Made by a program: the position numbers and the translations under genes
In this document: in pieces, positions 582 to 3,251 of the stretch
Layout: every line of letters starts with the position of its first letter
Position numbering within the stretch: the stretch's first letter is position 1
The notes under the pieces: generated by a model
Databases searched by the model: none
What the model was told of the DNA's origin: nothing
The model's input: only the letters and a program-made list of their open reading frames with translations
Source: Escherichia phage DCP2
Sequence record: OR780565.1
Direction: 5' to 3' (one strand)
Length of the DNA stretch: 64,000 bases

Positions 582-1610
582 ATGTCATCAATACCTTGGA
601 TTGATAATGAGTTTGCATATCGTGCGCTAGCTCATTTACCTAAATTCACACAAGTAAATAATAGTTCAACTTTTAAATTACGGTTTAGATGCCCTGTTTG
701 TGGAGATTCAAAAACCGACCAAAATAAAGCTCGTGGATGGTATTATGGCGATAATAATGAAGGAAATATTCATTGCTATAACTGTAACTATCATGCACCA
801 ATCGGAATATATTTAAAGGAGTTTGAACCTGATTTATATCGTGAGTATATCTTTGAAATAAGAAAAGAAAAAGGTAAAAGTCGTCCAGTAGAAAAACCTA
901 AAGAACTTCCTAAACAACCCGAGAAGAAAATAATTAAATCTCTTCCGTCATGCATTAGATTAGATAAACTGACGGAAGACCATCCAATTATAAAATACGT
1001 AAAAGCTCGTTGTATTCCAAAGGATAAATGGAAATATCTTTGGTTTACAACCGAATGGCCTAAATTAGTTAATAGTATAGCACCAGGAACATATAAAAAG
1101 GAAATACCTGAGCCTCGTCTTGTTATTCCAATTTATAATGCTAATGGAAAAGCTGAGTCTTTTCAAGGACGTGCATTAAAGAAAGATGCTCCTCAAAAAT
1201 ATATCACCATCAAAGCTTATCCTGAGGCAACAAAAATCTATGGTGTTGAACGAGTTAAAGATGGTGATGTATATGTTCTAGAAGGACCTATAGATTCACT
1301 TTTTATTGAAAATGGTATAGCTATTACGGGTGGTCAATTAGACCTAGAAATTGTTCCATTTAAAGATAGACGTGTATGGGTTTTAGATAATGAACCTCGT
1401 CACCCTGATACTATTAAACGAATGACTAAATTAGTTGATGCAGGAGAAAGGGTTATGTTTTGGGATAAATCTCCCTGGAAATCAAAAGATGTTAATGATA
1501 TGATTAGAAAGGAAGGTGCAACCCCTGAACAAATTATGGAATATATGAAAAATAATATTGCCCAAGGGTTGATGGCTAAAATGCGGCTATCTAAATATGC
1601 TAAGATTTAA
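582..1610 (+). CDS. 61: DNA primase gp61 (342 aa, N-terminal Cys4 zinc ribbon)
   Basis: 342 aa as in T4 gp61; CPVCGDS...CYNCNYH zinc-binding motif; synteny. Confidence 0.93.
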   Translation: MSSIPWIDNEFAYRALAHLPKFTQVNNSSTFKLRFRCPVCGDSKTDQNKARGWYYGDNNEGNIHCYNCNYHAPIGIYLKEFEPDLYREYIFEIRKEKGKSRPVEKPKELPKQPEKKIIKSLPSCIRLDKLTEDHPIIKYVKARCIPKDKWKYLWFTTEWPKLVNSIAPGTYKKEIPEPRLVIPIYNANGKAESFQGRALKKDAPQKYITIKAYPEATKIYGVERVKDGDVYVLEGPIDSLFIENGIAITGGQLDLEIVPFKDRRVWVLDNEPRHPDTIKRMTKLVDAGERVMFWDKSPWKSKDVNDMIRKEGATPEQIMEYMKNNIAQGLMAKMRLSKYAKI

Positions 1611-1807
1611 ATTAATCCAACTAAAGCAAATGCTAAATCTACGAATGTATCGAGAGTAATTACTGGAATACTAACGCCATGAGCAATAGCAATTGGCGAT
1701 AAAATAAAGTTCCATAGTAAAATTCCTATCATAGCAGAAATAGTAAAAGCTATACGTTTTTTATTACCTTTTATGGCATTAACAAGTGCCATTAATTTTT
1801 GTACCAT
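1607..1807 (-). CDS. small hydrophobic protein, two predicted TM helices (66 aa)
   Basis: ATG (rc of 1805-1807) preceded by strong SD AGGAGG (rc of 1815-1820) at 7-nt spacing; convergent with gene 61; possible ATAAATA late-promoter-like box upstream. Confidence 0.4.
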   Translation of the reverse strand: MVQKLMALVNAIKGNKKRIAFTISAMIGILLWNFILSPIAIAHGVSIPVITLDTFVDLAFALVGLI

Positions 1808-1856
1808 GCGTCGTCCTCCTTTAAATTAAATATTTATCGCAAATTTTACAAAATTT

Positions 1857-1886
1857 GTTTACTTTCTCAGCTTGCTGTGGTATTAT
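1857..1886 (+). promoter_or_regulatory. T4-type early promoter
   Basis: GTTTAC 1857-1862, TATTAT 1881-1886, 18-bp spacer, upstream of ORF at 1912. Confidence 0.5.
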
Positions 1887-1911
1887 AAAATAAACTGCTG
1901 AGGATAATATA

Positions 1912-2472
1912 ATGATTAATAAAATTGTACATGAAATGGCTTTAAACGGAGATTCATATAAAATATCTGCCGTAGTTGAAAATTTCATACTTAATAAAGT
2001 AAAAGAATATTTCACTGATTGTTCAGTTAGTTATCAAGAAAAAATGGTTTTAATCGACGATACTGAAAAATCAAATAATTTGTTTTGTTCGAATTTTACA
2101 ACTAAGAAGCGTACTAGAAGATTTGATATTGTCATTTCTCGCAATGGTAAAAAGCATATAATTGAAATCAAACACCAAGTTGGTGGAGGTACAGCCATTG
2201 ATTCGGTTGGAATATATCTGGAAGATAAAGATAAATTAAAAGAATACACAAAAACTGAAAATCCTGTGTCATTGATGATATTAGATTTTTTGCCATGCGG
2301 ATATTATCCGCGTAATAAGTGGACAAAAAGAGAATCATTTACTGATAATCCAACCATCCAAGCAAGGTTTAATGAATATGCTAAATCACAAAACGTGTTA
2401 GTATTACTATCAAATACATATGATGAAGAATTATATAATTCGTTTTTTGCTGCAATAAATGAGAGAATATAA
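1912..2472 (+). CDS. hypothetical protein with PD-(D/E)xK-like nuclease core motif (186 aa)
   Basis: ATG with SD GAGGA 7 nt upstream; motif [19 protein letters not shown] (D ... E-I-K on hydrophobic strands); stop overlaps dam start. Confidence 0.6.
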
Positions 2473-3251
2473 TGCTAGGAGCTATTGCGTATACAGGTAA
2501 TAAACAATCATTATTACCTGAACTTAAGTCTCACTTTCCAAAATATGACAGATTCGTAGATTTATTTTGCGGAGGGTTATCAGTATCTTTGAATGTCGAT
2601 GGTCCTGTATTGGCTAATGATATTCAAGAACCAATTATTGAAATGTATAAACGTCTTATTAGCGTGTCATGGGATGACGTTTTAAAAGTAATAAAGCAAT
2701 ACAAATTATCAAAAACATCAAAAGAAGAGTTTTTGAAATTACGTGAAGATTATAATAAAACTAGAGATCCTCTTTTACTTTATGTTCTTCATTTTCATGG
2801 GTTTAGTAATATGATTCGCATAAACGACAAAGGAAATTTTACTACTCCATTTGGAAAAAGAACCATAAACAAAAATAGTGAAAAACGTTTTAATCACTTT
2901 AAACAAAATTGTGATAAAATAATTTTTAGCTCATTGCATTTTAAAGATGTCAAAATTCTAGATGGCGATTTTGTATATGTGGATCCTCCGTATCTTATAA
3001 CAGTCGCTGATTATAATAAATTTTGGTCAGAAGACGAAGAAAAAGACCTTTTAAATCTTTTAGACTCTTTAAATGACAGAGGAATAAAATTTGGACTGTC
3101 GAATGTTTTAGAGCATCACGGAAAGGAAAACACTCTTCTTAAAGAATGGTCTAAAAAATATAATGTTAAGCATCTTAATAAAAAATACGTCTTTAACATA
3201 TATCATTCCAAAGAAAAGAATGGAACTGACGAAGTATATATTTTTAATTAA
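2472..3251 (+). CDS. dam: DNA adenine methyltransferase Dam (259 aa)
   Basis: DPPY catalytic motif ([10 protein letters not shown]), N-terminal AdoMet-binding region, size identical to T4 Dam. Confidence 0.9.

Follow-up and report, generated by a model that had tools for sequence, protein, structure and literature searches.

Within a 64,000-nucleotide (nt) stretch of Escherichia phage DCP2 (record OR780565.1, one strand read 5' to 3'; hereafter, "the window"), the methyltransferase gene dam is directly preceded by an open reading frame (ORF) of 186 amino acids (aa), which we refer to as ORF186. A prediction made from the sequence alone (hereafter, "the original prediction") had described ORF186 as a nuclease-like protein with a PD-(D/E)xK-like signature, paired with an orphan GATC methyltransferase. 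Our follow-up analysis tips, by a slim balance of probability, toward a small restriction-modification (R-M) cassette made up of these two genes.

The dam locus in the window

The locus reads, from left to right, as the primase gene 61, a minus-strand ORF of 66 aa, ORF186, dam, and the dCTPase gene 56 (Table 1). The three ORFs named in the original prediction (the 66-aa ORF, ORF186, and dam) are all present with the coordinates and strands it gave. Its implied T4 setting has to be replaced, since positions 1500-2600 are 100% identical to Escherichia phages vB_EcoM_P8, BMB16, and G28, so that the window comes from another member of the genus Tequatrovirus. Two of its descriptions of the layout also need correcting. 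ORF186 is not "fused" to dam but is a separate cistron: as had been noted, the last A of its TAA stop codon (2470-2472) doubles as the first base of the dam ATG (TAATG), giving a 1-nt overlap. The 66-aa ORF, described as convergent, in fact lies head to head (divergently) with ORF186, from which it is separated by a 104-bp divergent intergenic region; it is convergent with gene 61, and the 3' ends of these two overlap by 4 nt.

The dam product matches Pfam MethyltransfD12 at 1e-50 and scores 235 bits with TIGR00571 ("dam"), for which the cut-off is 114.85; judged from these profiles, it is a bona fide Dam-family methylase. ORF186 is a genuine gene, and purifying selection on it is strong. Relative to phage Lutter, it carries 16 synonymous and 3 non-synonymous changes (ratio of non-synonymous to synonymous rates, dN/dS, 0.04), and this ratio, together with full-length homologs down to 29% identity, excludes a chance ORF. 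The Shine-Dalgarno sequence claimed for ORF186 is in place. The claim of its own early promoter stands in part: a match of the T4 early type does lie upstream, but promoter hexamer matches of comparable quality are no more frequent than in shuffled sequence (12 found versus 13.7 expected), so that an early-type promoter at this site is plausible and not proven.

Table 1. Genes, signals, and conserved codons around ORF186 and dam (window positions)
Feature	Position	Strand	Remarks
Gene 61, primase	582-1610	+	
66-aa ORF	1607-1807	-	
ORF186-dam cassette, ~1.43 kb	roughly 1822-3252		relative to T6 and RB51
GATAAATA, 7/8 match to T4 late-promoter consensus TATAAATA	1831-1838	-	upstream of 66-aa ORF
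549-bp segment missing in T4	1844-2392		k-mer offsets and alignment against NC_000866
Early-promoter-like GTTTAC(T)-17/18-TATTAT with TG	1857-1886	+	consensus match only; within segment deleted in T4
Shine-Dalgarno GAGGA	1900-1904	+	7 nt 5' of ORF186 ATG, read from sequence
ORF186 (186 aa)	1912-2472	+	PHROG 8706; T2_31 in phage T2
E23 codon	1978-1980	+	first invariant acidic residue, helix 2; aligns to invariant E165 of LlaDCHI/DpnII-type enzymes
D72 codon, in RRFD, strand beta-2	2125-2127	+	invariant; aligns to invariant RRFD D210 of LlaDCHI family
E85-I-K87 codons, strand beta-3	2164-2172	+	invariant; E85 aligns to invariant E225 of LlaDCHI family, K87 to N227
G93-T-A-I-D-S98 codons, after Gly-rich loop	2188-2205	+	invariant; GGG(T/S) aligns to GGGGS of LlaDCHI family
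TATAAT within ORF186 3' end	2434-2439	+	possible separate -10 for dam (putative function)
dam (259 aa), Dam-family D12-class N6-adenine DNA methyltransferase, DPPY motif	2472-3251	+	
Gene 56, dCTPase	3312-3830	+	

Predicted fold and family affinity of ORF186

The nuclease assignment had rested on an 18-residue motif, which spans residues 71-88 of ORF186; D72 indeed stands thirteen residues ahead of E85-I-K87. An AlphaFold2 model of the protein (predicted local distance difference test, pLDDT, 81; predicted template modeling score, pTM, 0.79) has the order alpha-alpha-beta-beta-beta-alpha-beta-alpha-beta-alpha, which contains the alpha-beta-beta-beta-alpha-beta core of PD-(D/E)xK enzymes, and places E23 on helix 2, D72 on strand 2 (67-77), and E85 and K87 on strand 3 (80-88). 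A restriction-endonuclease fold with the canonical PD-(D/E)xK layout, as originally proposed, is therefore well supported by the predicted structure. Over its full length, the model is matched best by a conventional type IIP enzyme of equal size. MutH-like and DpnI-like identities were set aside because the top structural matches include neither, and the model contains no winged-helix or methyl-reader domain of the DpnI type, the whole protein being a single nuclease core.

The residues of the motif hold in the orthologs as well. In an alignment of 10 sequences with identities down to 29%, the invariant positions are E23, Q42, S54, R69, D72, I73, I75, H82, E85, K87, H88, Q89, G93-T-A-I-D-S98, L109, P118, S120, and D125. 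The predicted metal-binding and catalytic residues are thus among the most conserved, which argues for ORF186 being an active enzyme. This bears on the alternative of a catalytically silent nuclease-fold protein that binds DNA in partnership with Dam or regulates it, for instance by altering the site preference or expression of Dam. The tight translational coupling of the two genes and the shortness of ORF186, in which the N-terminal part of the DpnII enzymes has no counterpart, would suit such a role; in addition, ORF186 is present in T2, whose Dam methylates a larger number of sites than that of T4, but absent from T4. The difference between the two Dams, however, was reportedly put down by Miner and Hattman in 1988 to three amino-acid substitutions within the methylase, and inactivated nuclease folds usually lose the four predicted metal-binding and catalytic residues that never vary here. 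We consider a silent partner most improbable.

In sequence and profile searches, the affinities of the ORF186 family are weak, but several independent ones point toward the DpnII-type enzymes. Pfam DpnII (PF04556) is the top or near-top match for 4 of the 10 family members (E<1), always in one register that pairs protein residues ~11-112 with profile positions ~143-233 of 278 (residues 160-252 of the 304 in LlaDCHI). The gathering threshold of 23 bits is not reached, as ORF186 of the window scores 16.7 and the best member, P0009, scores 22.5. The PADLOC REase_II models PDLC03548 and PDLC03569 match the family at 7e-5, 5e-6, and 4e-3; the same two models match R.LlaDCHI (Lactococcus plasmid pSRQ700; PF04556), a DpnII-type enzyme with GATC specificity, at 1e-134 and 1e-99. 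When P0009 was searched by tblastn against 7.3 Gb of plasmids, the R.LlaDCHI gene alone was returned (2 records, E 0.5). In profile-profile comparison with hhalign, the ORF186 family aligns to R.LlaDCHI with E 7.5e-4 and to an 18-sequence alignment of LlaDCHI relatives (all PF04556) with E 2.8e-4 over 88 columns, at a probability of 41%, versus E 0.16 for Dam and E 0.27 for EcoRI as controls. The alignment pairs E23 with E165, RRFD72 with RRFD210, E85 with E225, and GGGT with GGGGS, and sets K87 opposite N227.

Taken as sequence evidence, these matches make ORF186 a probable remote homolog of DpnII, MboI, and LlaDCHI, all specific for GATC, in the catalytic core. By score, and by architecture since it lacks the N-terminal ~155 residues of these enzymes (full length ~280-304 aa), ORF186 does not count as a member of the DpnII family. 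Kinship with EcoRI through a similar pair of motifs (ExKHQ; G-x-A-I-D/E) was considered and dropped. G93-T-A-I-D-S98 does resemble GNAIER of the verified EcoRI sequence, but hhalign does not back the resemblance, its E of 0.27 falling in a non-equivalent region, and the Pfam EcoRI and MunI models do not match ORF186.

Other searches yielded little. HMMER runs of the single ORF186 sequence and two family profiles against the PDB gave nothing usable, and NCBIfam gave no meaningful match to ORF186. In two protein collections, of 5.8 billion and 1.84 billion entries, the family comprises ~12 clusters, all in T4-like phage contexts and none annotated; exhaustive profile searches of the same two collections found no relatives past these phage-type clusters and no bridge to a named family. 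ORF186 corresponds to PHROG 8706, listed as "unknown function." We excluded P0008 (117 aa) and P0010 (175 aa) from the alignments. Each joins an ORF186 fragment to unrelated domains (PF01370 epimerase; PF18343/PF03590), and both are probably chimeric assemblies. Our literature search found no paper on ORF186. The family and its place beside the T-even Dam appear undescribed, although type II R-M-like pairs as a kind are known, including in viruses.

Linkage to dam and loss of ORF186

In the phage collection, this end of gene 61 is found in 503 records, dam in 183, and full-length ORF186 in 154. Thus, dam is not solitary in 154 of the 183 phage records that carry it, and we found no record in this collection with ORF186 but without dam. 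Full-length homologs are 63% identical in MX01 and metagenome contigs, 41-44% in Klebsiella phages, and 29-31% in P0011 and P0013. In all inspected contexts, the homolog lies directly 5' of a Dam-family methylase, abutting it or overlapping it by at most 35 nt. The pair occurs in Tequatrovirus records and, at the same locus, in the Dhakavirus MX01; in Klebsiella Jiaodavirus-type phages (6 records with an ORF186 match, of which 2 contexts were inspected), it occupies another locus, between denB and ndd. It is also present in one IMG/VR contig, the scan of IMG/VR having contributed just 2 further loci, and in the metagenome contigs for P0002, P0005, P0006, P0009, P0011, and P0013. The pairing is therefore kept in three Tevenvirinae genera and in all metagenomic homologs, a conservation that the original prediction had left to be checked. 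Since the pairing holds across loci and genera in which the methylases are 53-75% identical to Dam of the window and the partner nucleases 29-63% identical to ORF186, the two genes appear, from their sequence contexts, to move and persist as a unit from which decay removes the nuclease; both behaviors are typical of R-M modules.

The same distribution has to be weighed for a second alternative, in which ORF186 works as a PD-(D/E)xK nuclease without being a GATC restriction enzyme. It could, for instance, be of a free-standing homing type or structure-specific, and it would ride with dam as one mobile insert or have its particular site masked by Dam. The patchy occurrence of ORF186 is compatible with a homing endonuclease; however, it is never seen without dam. 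A homing nuclease needs no methylase, yet the pairing is kept to 29% identity over two loci. Moreover, the sequence-level affinities of ORF186 go to GATC restriction enzymes alone, and the closest full-length structural match is an equal-sized type IIP enzyme. This alternative strikes us as unlikely.

Phages T6 and RB51 have neither ORF186 nor dam, and in them the 66-aa ORF (dam.1) runs straight to gene 56; the ~1.43 kb that separates them from the window therefore behaves as a cassette. T4, for which the original prediction could name no gene at this position, lacks one because a 549-bp deletion has occurred there, and ORF186 accordingly corresponds to no known T4 protein. Between dam and gene 61, T4 (NC_000866) has 309 unannotated bases (3627-3935). 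The deletion is flanked by direct near-repeats, ATCGCAAA (1836-1843) and ATCACAAA (2385-2392), and takes the promoter and roughly codons 1-160 of ORF186, leaving the last ~80 nt as a frameshifted remnant 5' of dam. Read from this alignment, the solitary dam of T4 is a derived state that arose by deletion of the nuclease gene. In phage KarlGJung, a second, independent internal deletion has likewise left dam in place.

The ORF186 3' end in the window reads TTATATAAT at 2432-2440, and its T4 equivalent is TTGTATAAT, an extended -10; for this reason, the T4 dam promoter may lie inside the remnant of the deleted gene. T2 records carry ORF186 as T2_31, a hypothetical protein of 181 aa with a C-terminal frameshift, which ends in ...NSFLLQ* 13 nt 5' of dam, without overlap. 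In laboratory T2 (MH751506 1501-2046; M22342), a run of T residues close to the ORF186 3' end is altered by one base; this run is also shorter in the T4 remnant. In a 1988 paper in J Bacteriol, Miner and Hattman are said to have described that T2, compared with T4, carries an insertion of 536 bp 5' of dam, in keeping with the presence of ORF186 in the T2 records.

A scan of genome contigs with a Dam profile for bacterial Dam/DpnII neighborhoods returned one contig, JBOFGC010000160.1, from a metagenome-assembled genome (MAG) labeled "Bacilli bacterium." It encodes a gene 61-like primase, a gp56-like dCTPase, a DexA-like exonuclease, and a Dam of 44% identity, with no ORF186, and evidently comes from a T4-like phage whose contig was mislabeled on being binned into a MAG of bacteria.

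The 66-aa ORF encodes a conserved small hydrophobic protein of its own, which neighbors the cassette and is not part of it. It matches PHROG 2024 at 1.2e-30, is known as dam.1 in T6 and RB32ORF030w in RB51, and is present with or without the cassette (in T6, RB51, T2, MX01, and metagenome contigs). In T4, it is intact (NC_000866 3627-3935; MVQKLMALVNAIKGNKKRIAFTISTMVGILLWNF...) but no feature is annotated there. The strong AGGAGG Shine-Dalgarno sequence reported for it lies 7 nt 5' of its ATG. Of the two transmembrane spans proposed, one is clear (a hydrophobic span at ~19-43 that follows a Lys-rich N-terminus); the second corresponds to a weaker, Asp-containing hydrophobic C-terminal tail, making a two-span topology possible but not secure. 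Upstream of the ORF, GATAAATA resembles the T4 late-promoter consensus TATAAATA, and phage Lutter has an annotated 8-bp promoter at the same place. Elsewhere around the locus, gene 61.2, which in T4 lies in the sp/61.1 interval, is missing from the window (401-414), as is the homing endonuclease gene segF of the T4 gene 56/soc interval (3830-4252).

A candidate restriction-modification pair among known systems

We lean, with modest confidence, toward the reading that ORF186 and dam form a compact DpnII-like R-M cassette of two genes that is mobile among T-even-type phages. ORF186 and Dam would be made early from one transcript, Dam by way of the TAATG overlap. Dam would methylate GATC, which is the established specificity of T2/T4 Dam, and so shield replicating phage DNA, while ORF186 would act as a Mg2+-dependent PD-(D/E)xK endonuclease, probably dimeric like MunI, that cuts GATC without adenine methylation. 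In Dam+ enterobacteria, host DNA is GATC-methylated and the phage DNA carries glucosylated hydroxymethylcytosine (glucosyl-hmC). With the chromosome already methylated, the likely targets would be unmethylated invaders, among them co-infecting dam-less T-even relatives, whose hmC genomes are the most interesting candidates. DpnII-type enzymes are blocked by methylation (PMC12707154). On this reading, the T4 deletion of 549 bp, flanked by 8-bp repeats, removed the nuclease gene and spared the methylase, which is how R-M pairs usually decay to orphan methyltransferases. The analysis establishes that ORF186 is a gene under selection, its predicted fold, its invariant catalytic residues, its constant linkage to Dam, and the T4 deletion. 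Its nuclease activity, GATC specificity, methylation sensitivity, and biological target are inferred, the GATC specificity and the block by methylation from the specificity of T2/T4 Dam and the affinity to DpnII-type enzymes.

Several points weigh against this reading. All of the DpnII-family matches fall under curated thresholds, with the hhalign probability at 41%. The N-terminal ~155 residues found in DpnII-type enzymes are missing from ORF186, which could therefore have another specificity, and K87 aligns to an Asn in that family. The gene order is R then M with a single methylase, whereas DpnII and LlaDCHI have the order M, M, R. The T2 C-terminal frameshift of ORF186 (181 aa) has no known consequence. 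Finally, the substrate is not obvious, as host DNA is already methylated at GATC and phage DNA is glucosylated.

In a third alternative, ORF186 might be a DpnI-type, methylation-dependent nuclease acting on the Dam-methylated cytosine DNA of the host, with Dam topping up the methylation and glucosyl-hmC protecting the phage. A Dam+ host chromosome would be a substrate for a methylation-dependent enzyme alone, the promoter match upstream of ORF186 is of the early type, and in Klebsiella phages the flanking genes denB and ndd serve host-DNA degradation and nucleoid disruption. However, methylation-dependent enzymes are normally unlinked to a cognate methylase, and ORF186 consists of a single nuclease core without a reader domain. 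T4 and others lost the nuclease and kept Dam, which fits Dam as a protector rather than a helper. The sequence affinity of ORF186 is to DpnII-type enzymes, which methylation blocks (PMC12707154). We judge a DpnI-type activity to be very unlikely.

GATC is the most depleted tetranucleotide in the window (1-64000), with 64 occurrences observed versus ~210-215 expected, an observed-to-expected ratio (O/E) of 0.30; the next, TCGA, stands at 0.61. In the dam-less T6 (1-50000), the GATC O/E is 0.32. Because T6 shows equal depletion, the depletion is lineage-wide and independent of carriage of the ORF186-dam cassette. Avoidance of GATC in enterobacteriophages was reportedly described by McClelland in 1985 and by Deschavanne and Radman in 1991. 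A more specific version of the R-M reading, which we think quite unlikely, makes the pair an inter-phage weapon: the nuclease would cut GATC in the non-adenine-methylated hmC genomes of co-infecting dam-less T-even relatives (~2/3 of Tequatrovirus records), carriers would be protected by Dam, the orphan Dam of T4 would be retained immunity, and GATC depletion would in part be a scar.

The T2/T4 Dam, among the most studied DNA methyltransferases, has been viewed as solitary and without a clear biological role. In a 2025 review, it is counted with the many other Dams encoded by phages, and no partner is named (PMC12707154). If ORF186 is the cognate nuclease, the role of Dam would be self-protection in a phage-borne R-M pair, the T4 arrangement would be a decay product, and the purpose of the T-even Dam would become directly testable. 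With its 186 aa, ORF186 would also be a very small restriction enzyme of the GATC type, drawn from a family of ~12 sequence clusters, and the pair would provide an example of an R-M system on strictly lytic, hypermodified phages.

The closest known counterparts are DpnII, MboI, and LlaDCHI, which likewise combine a nuclease with a Dam-family D12 methylase. The catalytic cores align weakly but consistently, in an alignment that pairs the invariant E, D (in RRFD), and E and a following GGG(S/T) loop; ORF186, however, has ~60% of the length and ExK in place of that family's ExN, and its carriers are lytic hmC phages, whereas those of the DpnII family are bacteria or plasmids. With type IIP enzymes of the MunI/EcoRI class, ORF186 shares structural similarity only, with no detectable sequence homology, and convergence or chance may account for the similar motifs. 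T4 Dam is the same gene at the same position as dam of the window. The free-standing homing endonuclease genes of T-even phages (seg, mob) resemble ORF186 in being scattered patchily among conserved neighbors and in the early expression and nuclease product predicted for ORF186, but their products have GIY-YIG or HNH folds, unlike the PD-(D/E)xK fold predicted here, and the genes are not coupled to a methylase. Among viruses, the chlorovirus PBCV-1 offers a parallel in CviAI (GATC), in which a lytic virus pairs a GATC nuclease with a Dam-type methylase and methylates its own DNA. CviAI degrades the unmethylated nuclear DNA of its host; the enterobacterial host of ORF186 is already GATC-methylated, and therefore any target of ORF186 must differ.

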